A stretch of 64,000 nucleotides of DNA from the NCBI GenBank assembly GCA_041649475.1, contig JBAZNA010000001.1, positions 686,594-750,593 on the forward strand, given 5' to 3'. Of the stretch, positions 28,556 to 54,716 are shown piece after piece. The translations under genes were made by a program, and so were the position numbers. The notes beneath the pieces were generated by a model. It ran no database searches, was not told where the DNA came from, and saw only the letters and a program-made list of their open reading frames with translations. The DNA comes from Patescibacteria group bacterium. Its GTDB lineage: Bacteria; Patescibacteriota; Patescibacteriia; Magasanikbacterales; GWA2-37-8. The first letter of the stretch is position 1; each line of letters begins with the position of its first letter.

Positions 28556-29035
28556 TTAGGCCAACCGGCCGTGTTTTTCTAAAAAATACACAGAACTGCC
28601 TTCTTTTTCATGACAGTATTTACAGAGCACCTCACCATTTTCCACATCCCACAACTCAAAACAATTTATAGCTTCAGGGACTGAAGTAATGCGATTACTT
28701 CTTACAATCTGACACAATGTTTTTTTGTGATGCACCTCAAGAGCATACTTGCACCCGCATCTCTGACATCTATAACCTGCTCTAAATAAAACTTGCACTC
28801 TCCATCTATAATATTCAAAAGATCTTTGCAGTTCGCTTCTAAATAACTTATACTGTCCAAAATCAAAACCGGTATAAGAAAAAATGTTATATACCTTACA
28901 ACTTGGGCTCTGCTTTTGGTCTTTGTGATCAGTACGAGAATGCTTGATTATTACATACAATAACCAACAAAGCATAGCCAGACCGATTAAATCACCGAGC
29001 GCGGATGTGTTCTCCATAGACCCGTACCCTGACAT
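28556..29035 (-). CDS. HNH endonuclease with N-terminal membrane anchor
   Basis: HNH-like Cys/His motif CQRCG...LEVHH...CKYCH; hydrophobic N-terminal segment. Confidence 0.6.
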   Translation of the reverse strand: MSGYGSMENTSALGDLIGLAMLCWLLYVIIKHSRTDHKDQKQSPSCKVYNIFSYTGFDFGQYKLFRSELQRSFEYYRWRVQVLFRAGYRCQRCGCKYALEVHHKKTLCQIVRSNRITSVPEAINCFELWDVENGEVLCKYCHEKEGSSVYFLEKHGRLA

Positions 29036-30155: not shown

Positions 30156-30617
30156 TTAATTTATATCTCCTCTGATATCAACCGAGTAAAAATATGCTTC
30201 AACCCCTTTTACCTCCGACTCCTTATTATTATTTTTAAACTGCTTAATAAAATCTTTAGTAGATTCTATCCCTTGTTTATCAATAAAGTACGTAACCTTG
30301 ATTGGCACCAGCATACTTGAAATCATGGTCTTTTCAGAAACCGTCACCCAAACCAAATTTTTATTATCCCTCAAATCTTCATCCAAAGGTATCTCCTGAT
30401 GATCGGCTAAATAGTCCTCGTGATCCTGATAAATAAACACGCTTTTGACTTTCTCCGAAACCTCCTCAATATTTTCAAAATTTTGCAGATCAGCCACGGG
30501 TTTGCCAAATCTTAAAGCTTCATGAATGGCCTGCGCGACCATCTCTTTTTCTAATTCAACCTGCGTGGTCTTGTCCTCCAGGTCTATTACCGGTATGCGG
30601 TTATCTAAATTTTCCAT
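30156..30617 (-). CDS. Hypothetical acidic protein (153 aa)
   Basis: ORF with no recognised domain. Confidence 0.35.
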   Translation of the reverse strand: MENLDNRIPVIDLEDKTTQVELEKEMVAQAIHEALRFGKPVADLQNFENIEEVSEKVKSVFIYQDHEDYLADHQEIPLDEDLRDNKNLVWVTVSEKTMISSMLVPIKVTYFIDKQGIESTKDFIKQFKNNNKESEVKGVEAYFYSVDIRGDIN

Positions 30618-30690
30618 AATCTTTTGACAGTTAAAATCTCTGCTCTAATTCTACCTTTTTTTGACTTTTTTGACAAGCCAACCCTCCTGC

Positions 30691-30719
30691 TTGACAAAAC
30701 CGAAAAATTATTTTAAAGT
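30691..30719 (+). promoter_or_regulatory. Sigma-70-like promoter TTGACA-17-TAAAGT upstream of the GC-rich cassette gene
   Basis: Canonical -35/-10 spacing. It is preceded by two further TTGAC half-sites and followed by RBS GAAGGAGAGG 3 nt before the ATG at 30743. Confidence 0.5.
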
Positions 30720-30742
30720 AATCAACCAACGAAGGAGAGGAC

Positions 30743-31051
30743 ATGACCAAAAACGGCACCGCAAACGGCGTGATCACGTTCGGCCAGTTGCAGGCGAAGT
30801 TCATGGAGGTCTTTCCGTCATACCTCAAGGGCCTGGAGGAATACCCCGCGGAGCTCCGCCATAGAATCGCCAAGCTCTGGCTGGACATAGAGGAGATGGC
30901 GTACGAGCGGCTGCGGCACTTTTCCGACGCCTTTCAGCTCCAGGACGTGGAGGTGCCGGTGGGCGTGACGGGTCGCTTCTGCGAGGAGATGGAACAGCTC
31001 CAGCAGGAGTTGAAGTCGGCTCACGACCGGCAGCACGGCGGGCACATCTAG
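30743..31051 (+). CDS. Hypothetical protein (102 aa) in GC-rich cassette
   Basis: GC-rich ORF with a consensus promoter and strong RBS, followed by a bidirectional terminator. No domain recognised. Confidence 0.5.
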   Translation: MTKNGTANGVITFGQLQAKFMEVFPSYLKGLEEYPAELRHRIAKLWLDIEEMAYERLRHFSDAFQLQDVEVPVGVTGRFCEEMEQLQQELKSAHDRQHGGHI

Positions 31052-31096
31052 CGCCGCTGCCCTACAGGTCAACAACGGTCATGTCCAGAATCAAAA

Positions 31097-31134
31097 AGCC
31101 GGTAGGCCTTCGCGCCACCGGCTCATTTTTTTTT
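31097..31134. terminator. Bidirectional rho-independent terminator (agccggt...accggct followed by T9)
   Basis: 7-bp GC-rich stem with a 13-nt loop. A-run upstream and T-run downstream. Confidence 0.6.
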
Positions 31135-31286
31135 AAAAATTATTTTTAGTCACCCTGCGGGAGGGAAAGACCGGCTCCTTTGGTAAAGACGGTCCGCCTG
31201 AGGCAGAAAAGGAGCGAGGTCTGTTCCACAAGGGCAAGATATATATACTGTATAAGTATGAGTTAAACCTGTCAAGAGGGCATTGA

Positions 31287-31358
31287 GCCGATGGTGGGGA
31301 TCAAACCCACGACCTATCGCTTACGAAGCGATTGCTCTATCAACTGAGCTACATCGGC
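31287..31358 (-). tRNA. tRNA-Thr (anticodon CGU), CCA not encoded
   Basis: Acceptor GCCGATG/CATCGGC, D-arm GCTC-AGTTGATA-GAGC, anticodon stem ATCGC/GCGAT with loop UUCGUAA, T-arm GTGGG-TTTGATC-CCCAC. Confidence 0.85.
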
Positions 31359-31366
31359 GCCTTTGT

Positions 31367-34000
31367 TTACCGGTTCGTCAATTTATTCATTTTTTCTTTG
31401 GCCTCATTTAACTTTTCCTTTTCTTTGGCTATAACTTCTTTTGGCGCGTTTTTTATAAAATCTTTATTCGCCAACTTATTTTCCAATCCGGAAATATATT
31501 TTTTCAAATCAGCCGTTTCTTTATTTATGCGCGCCGTTTCTTTTTCCACGTCAACCGCGCCGGATAAATCAATATACACCTCAATTCCGGATATGACAAA
31601 TCCGATGGCGTCTTTCGGCTTATTAAGTTTTTCTTTTATTTCCAAGTTTTCCAAACGGGCCAGATTTTTTATGACCTGCTCTTTTTCTTTTATAGTTTTA
31701 ACTTCGGTGCCGGCGCTGATATGCGCGGACAATTTTTTCCCCGGCTCAATTTTGTAATCCGCCCGCAGTGCCCTGATTCCGGTCACGATCGGCTGGATAA
31801 TCTTTTCAAATTTTATTACTTCTTTATCCGCCTTTGATTTAGTTTGTGCTATCGGCCACTTTTCCACCATCAGCAAATTATCCTGTCCGTAAACTTCTTT
31901 CCAAACCGTTTCCGTCACAAACGGCATATACGGATGCCAGAGTTTTAAGATTGTATTTAAAATATAATTTAAAACTTCTGATTTATTGCCTTCAATTTTG
32001 GCAATCTCCAAGTACCAATCAGCCAAGTCCCCCCAGGTGAAATCACGCAATCTCTCCCCTGCCAAAGAAAAATTAAAGTCCTCAATATTTTTGGTAGTTT
32101 CACCTACAATTAGATGTAATTTATTTAAAATCCATTTATCAGCCAGGGTTTTTGCGGTCGGCTCTTTTGCGTCGGCTTTTGGCGCCTCAATATTTAATAA
32201 AATAAATCTGGAAATATTCCAAAGTTTATTCGTAAAATTTCTAAAACCGGCAATTTTTTCTTCATATAGTTTTATATCGTTCCCCGGTGTGTTGCCAATA
32301 AGCAAAGACAGTCGGGTCGCGTCTGTGCCGTATTTGGCGATCATATCTAAAGGGTCAATCACATTACCCAATGATTTGCTCATCTTTCTCCCCTGCTCGT
32401 CGCGCACCAAACCGTGCAAATAGACCTTTTCAAACGGAACTTCGCCCAAAACATAGGTGGTCATCAAAATCATTCTCGCCACCCAGAAAAATAAAATATC
32501 ATAGCCGGTTTCCATCACTGAATTCGGATGATAATTTTTTAAGTCCTCGGTTTTTTCCGGCCAGCCCAGAGTGGAGAAAGTCCACAAACCCGAACTGAAC
32601 CAAGTGTCCAAGGTATCTTGATCCTGTTTCCAGCCCTCGCCTTTTGGCGCTTCCACGCCCACATAAACTTCTTCCGCCTTTGGCCCGGTCCGATACCAAA
32701 CCGGAATTCTGTGCCCATACCAAATCTGGCGGGAAATGCACCAGTCGCGCAAATTATCTATCCAGTGAAAGTATATTTTAACAAATCTGTCCGGAATGAT
32801 TTCAATCTTTTTGTCTTTCACCACTTTTTGCATCAGTTGTTTCAAACTCGCTTTCCGGCGCGCGATTTTTTTATTTACGTCAATAAACCATTGCTGTGAT
32901 GGGAGCGGCTCAATCGGCGTGCCGCAACGGTAACAAACCGACAAGTTATTTTGTGCATCTTCTTCTTTTTCCAAAATTCCGGCCGTGCGCGAATTTTCCA
33001 CCACTTTTTTTCGCGCCTCAACCACGCCTAAACCCGCGTACTGCGAACCGGCCTTGTCGGTGATTTTGCCGTCTTCATCAATAATTTTAATTATTTCCAA
33101 TTTATTTTTTATCGCCATGCCGTAGTCAACCAAACTGTGCGCCGGAGTCACACCCAATGCGCCCGTGCCGAAATCCATATCCACCTGCGCGTCGCCAATT
33201 ACTTTTATTTTCAAATCCGGCCCGCCGGCAAATTTTTTAATTTCAAAAACCTGGCCAATATATTTTTTATATCTCTTGTCTTTCGGATTGACAGCCACGG
33301 CCGTATCCCCTAATTTTGTCTCCGGCCGGGTGGTAGAAATCGCAAAAGGAAAATCTTTGCTGTATTTAAAGGTGTATAATTTCGCTTTCTGTTCTTTATA
33401 CTCCACCTCATCATCCGCCAAAGTGGTATGACAGCTCGGACACCAATTCACAATCCGGTAGCCGCGGTAAATCAAACCATCGTCATACATCATTTTAAAA
33501 ACCGTGCGCACGGCCAAGTTGCGCTTATCATCCAGTGTAAACGCCTCGCGGCTCCAATCCAAAGACGAGCCCATTTTTTTACACTGACTAACAATCGTGT
33601 CATGAGATTTTTGCGCAAATTTATTTACTTCATCCAAAAATTTTTCCCGGCCCAGTTCGGCCCGCGGATTTTTCATTCCCTGCCCGATGAGTAGTTTCTC
33701 AACTTTTGCCTGTGTAGCAATGGCCGCATGATCTGTACCCGGCACCCACAGGGTTTTGTCGCCTTTCATGCGGTGATAGCGCACCATCACATCTTCAATC
33801 GCGAGCATGGTCGCATGACCCAAATGCAAAGTTCCGGTGACGTTCGGCGGCGGTAAAACAATGGAAAACGGCTTCGCTTTTGGCCCGGCCACGCCTTTTT
33901 TGACGCAAACATCCGGATTAAAAAATCCGGACTGCTCCCATTTTTTATAAATCTCATCCTCGTAATTTTTTGGCTCGTAGGCCTTGGATAATTCGCGCAT
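31367..34000 (-). CDS. valS: Valine--tRNA ligase
   Basis: 877 aa with HIGH (PNVTGTLHLGH) and KMSKS (KMSKSLGN) motifs, a C-terminal coiled coil and an editing domain. Confidence 0.95.
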   Translation of the reverse strand: MRELSKAYEPKNYEDEIYKKWEQSGFFNPDVCVKKGVAGPKAKPFSIVLPPPNVTGTLHLGHATMLAIEDVMVRYHRMKGDKTLWVPGTDHAAIATQAKVEKLLIGQGMKNPRAELGREKFLDEVNKFAQKSHDTIVSQCKKMGSSLDWSREAFTLDDKRNLAVRTVFKMMYDDGLIYRGYRIVNWCPSCHTTLADDEVEYKEQKAKLYTFKYSKDFPFAISTTRPETKLGDTAVAVNPKDKRYKKYIGQVFEIKKFAGGPDLKIKVIGDAQVDMDFGTGALGVTPAHSLVDYGMAIKNKLEIIKIIDEDGKITDKAGSQYAGLGVVEARKKVVENSRTAGILEKEEDAQNNLSVCYRCGTPIEPLPSQQWFIDVNKKIARRKASLKQLMQKVVKDKKIEIIPDRFVKIYFHWIDNLRDWCISRQIWYGHRIPVWYRTGPKAEEVYVGVEAPKGEGWKQDQDTLDTWFSSGLWTFSTLGWPEKTEDLKNYHPNSVMETGYDILFFWVARMILMTTYVLGEVPFEKVYLHGLVRDEQGRKMSKSLGNVIDPLDMIAKYGTDATRLSLLIGNTPGNDIKLYEEKIAGFRNFTNKLWNISRFILLNIEAPKADAKEPTAKTLADKWILNKLHLIVGETTKNIEDFNFSLAGERLRDFTWGDLADWYLEIAKIEGNKSEVLNYILNTILKLWHPYMPFVTETVWKEVYGQDNLLMVEKWPIAQTKSKADKEVIKFEKIIQPIVTGIRALRADYKIEPGKKLSAHISAGTEVKTIKEKEQVIKNLARLENLEIKEKLNKPKDAIGFVISGIEVYIDLSGAVDVEKETARINKETADLKKYISGLENKLANKDFIKNAPKEVIAKEKEKLNEAKEKMNKLTNR

Positions 34001-34030
34001 AAAAACTATTTAAACCGGCGCTGGCGCGCC

Positions 34031-34104
34031 TGGAGCGGGATACGGGAATCGAACCCGCGTCTTAACCTTGGGAAGGTCACATACTACCATTGTAATAATC
34101 CCGC
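34031..34104 (-). tRNA. tRNA-Gly (anticodon CCC), CCA encoded
   Basis: Acceptor GCGGGAT/ATCCCGC, anticodon loop UUCCCAA, T-arm GCGGG-TTCGATT-CCCGT. 3' end TCCA. Confidence 0.8.
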
Positions 34105-38168: not shown

Positions 38169-38241
<73 letters not shown>

Positions 38242-38294
38242 CAAATTTAAAATCGCCGCGGAAGCGGTGGTTTTTTATTTTATCAATCTGGGTA

Positions 38295-38323
38295 TTGACC
38301 GCTTACTTACCTTATACTAAAAT
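38295..38323 (+). promoter_or_regulatory. Sigma-70-like promoter TTGACC-17-TAAAAT
   Basis: Near-consensus hexamers with 17-nt spacing, immediately upstream of a GC-rich non-coding stretch. Confidence 0.5.
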
Positions 38324-38325
38324 CA

Positions 38326-38600
38326 AATCAGACCGCGAAAGGGAACTGCAGGTGAAACAAACCAGCAACCTGTAGACCCGCACTTTCTCCCCAGAGAAAG
38401 GTTTAGCGGCCTCGTAGCGCAACACGGATGCGGCCTTGGGAACGACCGATAACGAGTTTAAACCTCGTCGGTCAGAAGAACGAGATCGTCCGCCGCAGCC
38501 CAAAAGAAGACGGATGAGCCAAGGAGGAGGAATGCGCCCAAGGCCCGAGCAACACAGCATGCAGGTGCTGGTAACTGCATGCTTCTTTTAATTCTTGTTT
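38326..38600 (+). ncRNA. Candidate ~270-nt GC-rich non-coding transcript (promoter-to-terminator unit), identity unknown
   Basis: Bounded by the promoter at 38295-38323 and the hairpin gcatgcag...ctgcatgc followed by a T-rich run at 38557-38600. No plus-strand ORF above ~26 aa. GC-rich and purine-rich. It does not match the tmRNA, RNase P or SRP features I can recall. Confidence 0.25.
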
Positions 38601-38672: not shown

Positions 38673-39248
38673 ATGCCACGTGCCATCATCAGTGTGTACG
38701 ACAAGACCCGGCTCCTGGCCTTCGTACAGGGTCTCACCAGTCTCAACTGGGAGATCATCTCCACCGGCGGCACCGCCAAGCATCTGCGGGAAGCGGGCTT
38801 CCCAATTCTGGATGTGTCGCAGGTCACCGGATTCCCGGAGTGCCTGGAGGGACGGCTCAAGACCCTGCACCCCAAGATCCTCGGCGGCATCCTGGCCAAG
38901 GGCACGCCGGAGCACAAGGCGACCCTCAAGAAGCTGGAAATCGAGATGGTGGACATGGTCGTGGTCAACCTCTACCCGTTTGAGGAGACCGTGGCCAAGC
39001 CGGACACGACCTGGGACCAGGCCATCGAGCAGATTGACATCGGCGGCCCCACCATGATCCGCGCCGCGGCCAAGAACCACAACCGCGTGACCGTGATCGT
39101 GGACCCGAACGACTACATGCTGGTGGTCAACGAGCTCGAGTTGCACGGCGAAGTCCGTCCTCATCTCCGCCAGTCCCTGGCGGCCAAGGTCTTCCGCAAG
39201 ACCGCGGAGTACGACAAGGCCATCGCGGACTACTTCAACAGGTCCTGA
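38673..39248 (+). CDS. PurH N-terminal domain only: IMP cyclohydrolase (MGS-like) domain protein, GC-rich, possibly a truncated purH
   Basis: MPRAIISVYDKTRLLAFVQGL...STGGTAKHLREAGFPILDVSQVTGFPECLEGRLKTLHPKILGGIL...VVVNLYPF matches the PurH IMPCH domain. It ends where the AICAR transformylase domain would begin. GC is far above the flanks. RBS AAAGGGGG upstream. Confidence 0.7.
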   Translation: MPRAIISVYDKTRLLAFVQGLTSLNWEIISTGGTAKHLREAGFPILDVSQVTGFPECLEGRLKTLHPKILGGILAKGTPEHKATLKKLEIEMVDMVVVNLYPFEETVAKPDTTWDQAIEQIDIGGPTMIRAAAKNHNRVTVIVDPNDYMLVVNELELHGEVRPHLRQSLAAKVFRKTAEYDKAIADYFNRS

Positions 39249-50777: not shown

Positions 50778-50987
50778 TTATTTTAAATGTTTAGTGATTT
50801 GATTGATTATTTTGCGCATTTCCTTTTCCGGTATAAAAACTACCTTGCCAAAATGTTCCACCACTACAAACCGATCGCCTTCTTTCATTTTTAGTTTTTC
50901 TCTGGCTTCTTTTGGTATGACCACCTGACCCCTCGGACCGAGGTTGACGGTCCCGCAGATAGTCCCGAACGGATTGCTTGATTTCAT
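50778..50987 (-). CDS. AbrB/MazE/SpoVT-family DNA-binding protein (69 aa)
   Basis: Swapped-hairpin motif GQVVIPKEAREKLKMKEGDRFVV. First gene of the exporter operon. Confidence 0.65.
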   Translation of the reverse strand: MKSSNPFGTICGTVNLGPRGQVVIPKEAREKLKMKEGDRFVVVEHFGKVVFIPEKEMRKIINQITKHLK

Positions 50988-51009: not shown

Positions 51010-51056
51010 AGTATGAATTATCTTACTAATCATACTACCTGTCAAGAGGGTTGTCA
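51010..51056 (-). promoter_or_regulatory. Promoter for AbrB-HlyD-MacB operon: TTGACA-18-ATAATT on minus strand, with CCCTCTTGACAGGT and TCATACTTAT motifs
   Basis: Minus-strand reading: cccTCTTGACAggtagtatgattagtaagATAATTcatacttat, followed 20 nt later by the ATG. A second TTGACA lies just upstream. Confidence 0.45.
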
Positions 51057-51062
51057 ATGGGC

Positions 51063-53673: not shown

Positions 53674-53746
53674 GCGGGCTGTAGCGAAGTTGGTATCGCG
53701 CATCGTTCGGGACGATGAGGCCGCGGGTTCAAGTCCCGCCAGCCCG
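53674..53746 (+). tRNA. tRNA-Pro (anticodon CGG), CCA not encoded
   Basis: Acceptor CGGGCTG/CAGCCCG, D-arm GCGA-AGTTGGTA-TCGC, anticodon stem CATCG/CGATG with loop UUCGGGA, T-arm GCGGG-TTCAAGT-CCCGC. Confidence 0.85.
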
Positions 53747-53765
53747 ACGGGAAGGAGGCAAAGCA

Positions 53766-54029
53766 ATGCGTATTCCTTGTCCACGACCGCCCAGGTCGAT
53801 TCAAGATGAGGTTAAGGTTCATGAAGCAATCAGGGACGCCAAGGCCAATTCCAGGCTGATCTTCGTCGTTGAAGTCAATCCGAAAACGCACGAAGTGTCG
53901 GCTAACGCGTACTGGCCGGCTGCCCTGCCCGGATGGGAAAAGGAATATTCCCTTCTCGGGGAGCTCAAGAAGATGGCCGTTTCGGTCTGGCGCAAGGTCA
54001 GCAGGAAGCAAAACAATGCGCAAGCATAG
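53766..54029 (+). CDS. Hypothetical protein (87 aa) in GC-rich cassette
   Basis: Strong RBS GGAAGGAGG 8 nt upstream of the ATG, directly abutting the tRNA-Pro 3' end. GC-rich; no domain recognised. Confidence 0.4.
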   Translation: MRIPCPRPPRSIQDEVKVHEAIRDAKANSRLIFVVEVNPKTHEVSANAYWPAALPGWEKEYSLLGELKKMAVSVWRKVSRKQNNAQA

Positions 54030-54116: not shown

Positions 54117-54716
54117 TTACTTCTTCGTGGGCTTCTGGCCCACACGCATGTCCTTCACATCCGCCTCCACTCCGACCTCCAGGGTATTCGGCTTGACCGA
54201 GAAGATCTCCTCCTGTTTGATCTTCACCCCAGGCACAGTGACGGCGACAGCCGGTTCTTCCAGCATCGCCTCCTTGTTTGGGTCTTCAACGATTCTGACA
54301 AAGCGCTTGAGGCCCATCTTCTTGAGCGCCTTGATCACCGCCTTCTTGTCGCGCAGGTGCACCGAAGGCGGATTGAGACGCCATCCGAAACTGCCGGTTG
54401 GCACCTGGATGGTCTTGGTCTTGCCGCCCTCGGTCAGCGTCTCGCGGTTCGCGTCGGCGAAGATGAAGAGACCCCGTACCAGGCCGGCAATGGTCCGGTT
54501 GTGAGACGAGGCGAAGGCCATCGCCTTCTTCTGCAAGACCGCTACCCCGTCATTTAAGACATTCTCGATCGAGTTGATCTCCCTCTGCTCCGCGGCGATG
54601 CGAGTCAGTATGTTAGCCGCCTCAACCAGGTTTTCCGGAATATATACTTCATAGTCCGGCTTAGCAGGCATCTTCACCTGATGAGGTGCTTTATCCACGA
54701 TCTTTTTCTTGGCCAT
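54117..54716 (-). CDS. gam: Phage Mu Gam-like host-nuclease inhibitor / DNA-end binding protein
   Basis: ETLTEGGKTKTIQVPTGSFGWRLNPPSVHLRDKKAVIKALKKMGLKRFVRIVEDPNKEAMLEEP aligns closely, by memory, with Mu Gam (DELTNGGKVKTANLVTGDVSWRVRPPSVSIRG...LGLQRFIRTKQEINKEAILLEP). GC-rich; RBS GGAGGG. Confidence 0.7.
   Translation of the reverse strand: MAKKKIVDKAPHQVKMPAKPDYEVYIPENLVEAANILTRIAAEQREINSIENVLNDGVAVLQKKAMAFASSHNRTIAGLVRGLFIFADANRETLTEGGKTKTIQVPTGSFGWRLNPPSVHLRDKKAVIKALKKMGLKRFVRIVEDPNKEAMLEEPAVAVTVPGVKIKQEEIFSVKPNTLEVGVEADVKDMRVGQKPTKK

Follow-up and report, generated by a model that had tools for sequence, protein, structure and literature searches.

The 64,000-nucleotide (nt) stretch of contig JBAZNA010000001.1 analysed here (the window) comes from a Patescibacteria group bacterium, and its nearest named relatives by valyl-transfer RNA (tRNA) synthetase (ValRS) are Candidatus Magasanikbacteria. 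The G+C content of the window is 43%, and at one locus 300-nt segments, for which the mean of the window is 0.43 ± 0.06, reach up to 0.62. The peak falls in a 60% G+C stretch between a gene for an unknown protein of 153 amino acids (aa; 30617 to 30156, minus strand) and the gene for tRNA-Thr(CGU). Our sequence analysis points to two real and convergent genes in this stretch: on the plus strand an open reading frame (ORF) for a 102-aa protein, identical to the NCBI entry 'MAG: hypothetical protein WC526_03620 [Patescibacteria group bacterium]', and on the minus strand a putative small RNA gene that faces it across a shared terminator (Table 1). A first-pass annotation, made from the letters of the window alone, had described a GC-rich cassette beside tRNA-Thr, with a TTGACA-17-TAAAGT promoter, a ribosome-binding site (RBS) and an ATG serving a 102-aa protein of unknown function, followed by a bidirectional terminator, and each of these elements was located. 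It had also called the unit almost synthetic-looking, a description that does not hold, since perfect TTGACA-N16-18-TANNNT sites number 11 in the window vs 1.8 expected (a six-fold enrichment), which makes such 'textbook' promoters a property of the genome and no sign of artificiality. In this genome a strong sigma-70-type promoter close to consensus is the rule. For comparison we used the contigs that encode the two relatives of the 102-aa protein, giving three lineages: the window, L001 (with L002) and L009.

Table 1. Features of the GC-rich cassette and its flanks, in positions of the window.
Feature	Position	Strand	Basis or remark
Divergent promoter of the upstream 153-aa gene, TTGTCA-17-TAGAAT	30648..30676	minus	10/12 consensus positions; both hexamers kept in L001 and L009
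ORF promoter, sigma-70-type, TTGACA-17-TAAAGT	-35 30691-30696, -10 30714-30719	plus	10/12 consensus positions
Shine-Dalgarno sequence GAAGGAGAGG	30731..30740	plus	2 nt ahead of the ATG at 30743
ORF, 102 aa, ATG start	30743..31051	plus	open reading frame with coding periodicity
Two-way intrinsic terminator (A5, GC-rich hairpin, T9), common to the ORF messenger RNA (mRNA) and the small RNA	31093..31134	both	fold; A-run 31093-97, stem GCCGG..CCGGC 31098-31122, T-run 31126-34
Predicted small RNA body, rod of four stacked helices, ~92 nt	31149..31240	minus	folding and conservation
Most conserved small RNA element (apical hairpin and bulge CCGUCUUUACC)	31182..31207	minus	block common to three lineages
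Small RNA promoter, TTGACA-17-TACAGT	31247..31275 (-35 31275-31270, -10 31252-31247)	minus	10/12 consensus positions
tRNA-Thr(CGU)	31285..31358	minus	borders the small RNA promoter on its upstream side; follows valS (34000 to 31367) by 8 nt

The minus-strand unit looks like a real and new small RNA family, both conserved and structured. Its promoter reads TTGACA-17-TATAGT in L001 and TTGACA-17-TAAAGT in L009, and from the -10 box we infer a candidate transcript that would start at ~31240-31242, end at ~31093-31095 and total ~148 nt. The body is predicted to fold into a rod in which a closing helix (AUAUCUUGC/GCAGGGUG), a second helix (GGAA-AGACC/GGUCU-UUCC) and a third (GCUCCUUU/AAAGGAGC) lead to an apical 6-bp hairpin (UCUGCC-UCA-GGCGGA, 31193-31207), on the 3' side of which lies an 11-nt single-stranded bulge (31182-31192). 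Independent folding of all three RNAs returned the same four-helix rod, with the bulge unpaired in 3/3 folds and with a preference for the minus strand (folding z-scores of -4.0, -3.5 and -3.9 in the three lineages, compared with -1.2 and -2.4 for the plus strand); several G.U pairs of the rod would become A.C mismatches on the opposite strand and fit the minus strand only. Within the most conserved element, the block CUGCCUC(A/U)GGCGGACCGUCU is present in 3/3 lineages and only the middle base of the loop varies. Two pyrimidine-rich stretches, GCUCCUUUUCU and UCUUUCCCUC, are also conserved, and the C/U-rich stretches are mostly base-paired within the rod. When the sequences are set in register by hand, the second pair of helix 3 changes from C-G to U-A in L009, a double change consistent with the minus strand alone, and one A-U pair becomes G.U in L001; RNAalifold on a MAFFT alignment of the three RNAs counted zero compensatory pairs, because MAFFT and the covariance model misalign ~8 columns of L009. 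A conserved peptide is excluded by single-nucleotide indels among the relatives. On these grounds the unit would have the attributes of a free-standing bacterial small RNA gene, namely a promoter, an intrinsic terminator, no conserved ORF, and conserved sequence and structure.

The first-pass annotation had placed here a GC-rich minus-strand unit of about 110 nt with no ORF, possibly an antisense transcript, and had proposed an Rfam scan and folding as checks. The GC-rich, ORF-free unit stands and its size changes, the body being ~92 nt and the transcript ~148 nt with the terminator; a small minus-strand non-coding gene appears to be present, antisense only over the ~40 nt of the terminator. 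The proposed checks gave no Rfam family, a rod with a z-score of -4.0, and 87-95% identity in two other lineages. A 14-mer, CCCTCTTGACAGGT, which had been named as a -35-like element facing back toward the terminator, does hold the TTGACA of the small RNA promoter. It occurs twice on the minus strand as claimed (31267-31280 and 51037-51050; 2 copies vs 0.14 expected, and 1/100 shuffles gives 2), the second copy lying one base off the 51038-51051 given before. The identity of the two copies is probably incidental, because the bases flanking TTGACA vary in the relatives. The second copy forms the -35 box of a promoter (TTGACA-17-GATAAT) of a 69-aa AbrB/MazE-like gene (50778-50987, minus), upstream of which there are two overlapping TTGACA boxes (TTGACAACCCTCTTGACAGG; 51029-51057, minus).

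Between the small RNA body and the terminator lies an A/U-rich spacer whose sequence is not conserved. On the minus strand the terminator forms a strong predicted hairpin followed by U5; a simple terminator scanner missed it because the stem is long and imperfect. It is identical at 39/39 positions in the window and L001, in both of which the ORF mRNA and the small RNA are complementary over ~40 nt of terminator, whereas L009 has two separate terminators instead. As the two L009 genes end separately, conservation does not extend to the 3' overlap, and the pair probably does not work through the ~40 nt of shared terminator. We found no terminator between tRNA-Thr and the small RNA, so that read-through from valS and tRNA-Thr would also be expected to stop at the shared terminator.

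Gene order in L001 and L002 (TspO, a variable gene, ORF, terminator, RNA, tRNA-Thr, valS) is that of the window. Conservation is stronger in the small RNA than in the ORF: between the window and L001 the RNA body is identical at 86/91 positions (95%) and the ORF at 258/297 (87%), with promoters 75-82% identical and tRNA-Thr unchanged (74/74), and between the window and L009 the figures are 81/93 (87%) for the RNA and 60% nucleotide identity for the ORF. The L009 contig is unrelated and was located solely via a 30%-identical protein (P0004); a convergent copy of the RNA (538-636, minus) was then found right behind the ORF homologue, and there 1.4 kb with three other genes lies between the RNA and tRNA-Thr. 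The pairing of RNA and ORF is thus kept in 3/3 lineages though the upstream gene is swapped in L001 and 1.4 kb is inserted in L009. An assembly artefact is excluded, because the same junctions occur in the independent assemblies L001, L002 and L003.

Searches for known families returned nothing for the small RNA. With Rfam 15 (4227 families, a set that includes motifs from earlier large comparative screens) only tRNAs passed the gathering thresholds in the window; at E <= 10 on positions 30950-31300 (351 nt) the best score over the RNA body was 14 bits, the gathering score being 39.9, and the L001 and L009 RNAs likewise matched no family. ARAGORN reported no transfer-messenger RNA (tmRNA). A covariance model (R1) found one copy only in the window; at the valS loci of five relatives and in chance pattern matches it found no copy. 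ValRS served as the anchor for fetching related genomes, and in relatives with 70-79% identical ValRS the order is valS-tyrS-argS, with no tRNA-Thr or small RNA there, some of the fetched contigs stopping at or just past valS. Exact-pattern scans with the invariant core gave no true homologue in 185,579 GTDB species-representative genomes, JGI metagenomes or IMG/VR viral contigs; inspection by eye and model R1 showed that the matches had arisen by chance only. Because the RNA family is so rare and narrow in distribution, a housekeeping role is disfavoured. This bears on the idea of a very divergent housekeeping RNA, chiefly the 4.5S or signal recognition particle (SRP) RNA, which the rod shape and size of the RNA, its strong promoter and its place beside a tRNA gene would favour. 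Like 4.5S and small SRP RNA (RF00169), our candidate is a rod of ~100 nt with its own promoter and an intrinsic terminator. The apex (domain IV) of 4.5S RNA has a GNAR tetraloop and symmetric and asymmetric internal loops and binds Ffh. Compared with the E. coli 4.5S RNA, the apex of the present RNA is instead a 6-bp helix capped by a loop of 3 nt, beside which lies the 11-nt 3' bulge; it has neither the GNAR tetraloop nor the symmetric and asymmetric domain IV loops. Given also that cmscan gave no RF00169 score, that no SRP, 6S, RNase P, tmRNA or other Rfam match appeared even at E <= 10 in the 351-nt target, and that the RNA was found neither in the 185,579 species genomes, nor in the JGI metagenomes (exact core pattern), nor at the relatives' valS loci (ValRS 70-79%), we find a housekeeping identity scarcely credible.

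In a cis-acting role the RNA would be a riboswitch-like sensor whose terminator gates antisense read-through into the convergent ORF, and riboswitch-controlled antisense RNAs have been described in Clostridium and Listeria. A structured and conserved domain, an A/U spacer and an intrinsic terminator are in place, only the ORF lies downstream, in antisense, in the window and L009, and the highly conserved unpaired bulge could form a pocket or a pseudoknot. However, no alternative antiterminator pairing is conserved; GAGCCGGU stands both in the RNA body and in the terminator arm of the window and of L001, but this repeat is missing in L009. The spacer is not conserved either, the fold is a simple rod with no multi-stem junction, no Rfam riboswitch matches, and in L009 read-through would have to pass two serial terminators. 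We therefore consider a sensor very unlikely. GC-enriched intergenic regions in genomes of lower G+C content are a recognised signature of structured RNA, as outlined for the GC-enriched intergenic region (GC-IGR) approach to AT-rich genomes (Brewer et al., 2021; PMC8632094). Our candidate resembles the GC-IGR candidates in being non-coding and GC-enriched within a genome of lower G+C content and in having a stable fold that is conserved, which is just what that pipeline looks for, and it differs from them in being free-standing, with its own promoter and terminator, in being no 5' leader and in matching no Rfam 15 family.

A role in trans would place the RNA beside regulators such as RsaE/RoxS, which are trans-acting small RNAs of Gram-positive bacteria with C/U-rich segments that pair with Shine-Dalgarno sequences. 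Like these, the present RNA has an independent promoter and an intrinsic terminator, and its stretches GCUCCUUUUCU and UCUUUCCCUC could pair with GGAG-type ribosome-binding sites; unlike RsaE/RoxS, its C/U-rich stretches are mostly paired in the rod, no target was identified, and there is no homology. A search of the window for complements of the 11-nt bulge gave nothing convincing.

The convergent ORF appears to encode an orphan. Its promoter has an invariant -35 box in the relatives (the -10 box being TAATAT or TATGAT), and its Shine-Dalgarno sequence is unchanged in L001 and L002 and reads AAAGGAGAAG in L009. G+C at codon positions 1/2/3 is.65/.32/.87, a periodicity expected only of coding sequence, which identifies the ORF as coding. 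Across the three lineages G+C at the third codon position (GC3) is.87/.87/.84 and at the second.32-.34, in surrounding DNA of 32-46% G+C, and the GC3 of the neighbouring genes is.42-.61 vs.87 for the ORF. An index resembling the codon-adaptation index, built from the long ORFs of the window, is.565 for the ORF vs.696 ±.052 for 69 window ORFs, 2.5 standard deviations below the mean and among the four lowest values in the window, alongside other GC-rich islands. The codon usage of the ORF is non-native. Its GC-richness is not due to a hidden structured RNA, because the region folds no better than shuffles (z-scores of -0.7 in the window and -1.3 for the L009 homologue); the idea that the region is really a structured RNA was ruled out by these values together with the strong GC periodicity. 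A 133-aa ORF at 10770-11171 (minus; GC3.68), with no Pfam or NCBIfam match, ranks last in the window by codon-adaptation index (.51).

The protein matched nothing in Pfam-A, NCBIfam, PHROGs or PADLOC, and its AlphaFold2 model (predicted local distance difference test, pLDDT, 78; beta-alpha-alpha-beta-alpha) had no match in PDB or BFVD at E < 0.3. The homology and structure checks proposed in the first-pass annotation thus uphold its picture of a protein of unknown function, with coding periodicity, no family or fold match and non-native codon usage. When 5.8 billion proteins were searched by word index and 1.84 billion representatives exhaustively with HMMER, only two relatives came to light, namely P0002 (77% identical) and P0004 (30% over the full length, E 6e-7). 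A third hit, P0003, a 1529-aa TIR-repeat protein (E 1e-12 summed over 8 repeats), was rejected as coiled-coil-like noise (hhalign probability 4%), and P0005 and P0006 from the HMMER search were rejected as repeat noise. A protein-pattern scan of viral contigs for the ORF product gave no match. The family proteins (92-102 aa) are acidic and hydrophilic, with an isoelectric point (pI) of 5.5-5.8 (5.5 in the window) and a grand average of hydropathy (GRAVY) of -0.5 to -0.64, and no hydrophobic helix is predicted. The ratio of nonsynonymous to synonymous substitution (dN/dS) is 0.73 between the window and L001, which are also separated by an in-frame 12-nt indel, and against L009 the proportions of nonsynonymous (pN) and synonymous (pS) differences are.45 and.48. 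Our data suggest a tiny, lineage-restricted orphan family whose amino-acid sequence evolves in a near-neutral manner but whose very GC-rich codons are kept.

The surroundings of the pair are variable. The genes scanned around the cassette are valS on one side and, on the other, the unknown 153-aa protein, TspO, a DUF4230 protein and an HNH protein. The last, an HNH-endonuclease-domain protein of 159 aa (28556-29035, minus) three genes from the cassette, adds to the accessory and variable character of the region from 28.5 to 31.3 kb. In the window the gene under the conserved divergent promoter encodes the unknown 153-aa protein (30156-30617, minus), and in L001 its place is taken by a gene for a protein with an NYN (PIN-like nuclease) domain (736-1239, minus). 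The two proteins are mutually unrelated, with no similarity, and the slot between TspO and the cassette looks replaceable. The blocks TTTTTTGACAAGC and AATTCTAC upstream of the ORF promoter are conserved because this divergent promoter sits there, and a 'conserved upstream operator' of the ORF was dropped for that reason. Around valS (31367-34104 region) the window has tRNA-Gly upstream and tRNA-Thr downstream, and L021, L023 and L025 (ValRS 73-79% identical) have tyrS and argS after valS; because the order differs, the valS neighbourhood appears to be rearranged in the lineage of the window.

Two facing genes of this kind call to mind a type I-like toxin-antitoxin system, or a similar addiction or defence pair, in which the convergent RNA would counter a harmful protein by neutralising its mRNA via the complementary 3' ends. 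In Bacillus subtilis, bsrG/SR4 and txpA/RatA are type I toxin-antitoxin pairs that are convergent with overlapping 3' ends. The present pair is like them in having facing genes for a small protein and an RNA, each driven by a strong promoter of its own, and, in L001 as well as the window, a shared terminator and ~40 nt of perfect 3' complementarity. RNA and ORF occur together in 3/3 lineages, the surroundings are variable and accessory (the HNH endonuclease, and the NYN nuclease in L001), and the fast evolution of the protein (dN/dS 0.73; pN.45 vs pS.48 to L009) is typical of conflict genes. The protein, however, is unlike the short (under ~60 aa) hydrophobic membrane peptides of such systems, being a soluble acidic and hydrophilic protein of 92-102 aa, and the separate terminators of L009 mean that no RNA overlap is obligatory. 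There is, moreover, no conserved pairing site between RNA and mRNA, no PADLOC match, and no sequence or profile similarity to bsrG/SR4 or txpA/RatA. We regard such a pair as unlikely.

The position at a tRNA gene raises another possibility, that the RNA and ORF are leftover cargo, with no role in the host, of a decaying phage or integrative element at the 3' flank of tRNA-Thr. The ORF does show the foreign composition and codon usage of tRNA-targeted islands, other GC-rich islands of the window adjoin tRNA genes, one of them with a phage Mu Gam-like gene, and L009 has a further GC-rich cassette between the module and tRNA-Thr. On the other hand, there is no integrase among the scanned neighbours, neither border carries a direct repeat of the 3' end of the tRNA (local alignments were no better than shuffles), and neither blastn of the whole cassette against phage and plasmid collections nor the scans of viral contigs gave a match. 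The GC3 of.84-.87, the open ORF and an RNA 87% identical were kept while the protein fell to 30% identity, which argues for continued selection rather than decay and makes a mere remnant improbable.

GC-rich cassettes beside tRNA genes are recurrent in this lineage (tRNA-Thr, tRNA-Lys, tRNA-Pro, and in L009). In L009 the second cassette (1615-2035), a different one at the 3' flank of tRNA-Thr, consists of a TTGACA-17-TATGAT promoter, an RBS (GAGGAGAGGAGG), a 94-aa ORF with GC3 of.79 and a two-way terminator, and suggests that the tRNA-Thr flank is a hotspot for such cassettes. In the window, between tRNA-Lys (38169-38242) and an ORF at 38673-39248, positions 38286-38592 (plus) hold a promoter-like TTGACC-17-TACTAA, a ~260-nt GC-rich non-coding stretch and a hairpin with a U-run. 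Rfam gave nothing for this stretch, even at E <= 5; its folding z-score is -2.6, and it could be a second structured RNA of no known family or the leader of the downstream purH-like gene. That gene (38673-39248, plus; GC3.85) has foreign codon usage, like the 102-aa ORF, and comprises only the N-terminal MGS/IMP-cyclohydrolase part of PurH, its 191 aa falling on positions 2-188/511 of TIGR00355. At tRNA-Pro(CGG) (53675-53748) a small GC-rich ORF (53767-54029, plus; RBS GGAAGGAGG) starts 19 nt past the tRNA and is convergent with the GC-rich phage Mu Gam-like gene (54117-54716, minus; PF07352, E 9e-33), which makes a third island of high G+C next to a tRNA gene.

The explanation that we prefer is that the two convergent genes are real and that they serve the same process. 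On the plus strand, the strong sigma-70-type promoter and the Shine-Dalgarno sequence would express the acidic helical 102-aa protein; on the minus strand, a separate strong promoter a few bases past tRNA-Thr would make a stable non-coding RNA that ends at the shared hairpin terminator. The small RNA would act in trans, its invariant apical hairpin and bulge, which we propose as a putative recognition site, contacting a partner that may be a protein or a complementary RNA. A shared process is suggested by the RNA and the ORF staying together while the genes on both sides change. We give this combination of convergent real genes, a trans-acting RNA with a hairpin-and-bulge contact site and a process in common with the protein a probability of roughly 0.55. 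Several observations weigh against it. The acidic pI of the protein (5.5-5.8) argues against direct RNA binding, and no target, ligand or partner was identified for the small RNA. A full-length duplexfold of the RNA with the ORF mRNA is meaningless, and in a windowed duplex search the energies were within the shuffled range, with no conserved site; since the terminator overlap is not conserved either, direct regulation of the ORF mRNA by the RNA is unsupported. Covariation lends little support, as the three sequences represent two deep lineages and show one compensatory pair, and the co-occurrence of RNA and ORF could be plain synteny among related genomes.

A bolder extension of this explanation is that the RNA and the GC-rich protein make up a new two-component module, either an addiction or defence pair or a dedicated ribonucleoprotein, of a Magasanikbacteria-like branch of Patescibacteria, with selection for GC-rich codons. 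Such selection may make translation depend on rare C34 tRNAs, of which the adjacent tRNA-Thr(CGU) is an example, or alternatively may shield the mRNA from A/U-directed nucleases. We hold this extension to be tentative and rather unlikely.

To our knowledge, almost nothing is known about the regulatory RNAs of the Candidate Phyla Radiation, the organisms of which are uncultured and the genomes of which are annotated for proteins only. The locus offers a testable candidate, a strongly promoted, terminator-bounded and conserved structured RNA outside the known families. It also poses an evolutionary puzzle, as the protein sequence seems to drift almost freely while its frame, its length and a GC3 of.84-.87 are kept down to 30% identity in a genome of 43% G+C. 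A systematic survey of the GC-rich cassettes that recur next to the tRNA genes of this genome would be worthwhile. If the functional link between the two genes is true, they would represent a new RNA-protein module, and if there is no such link, the RNA would still represent a new family of small RNAs.

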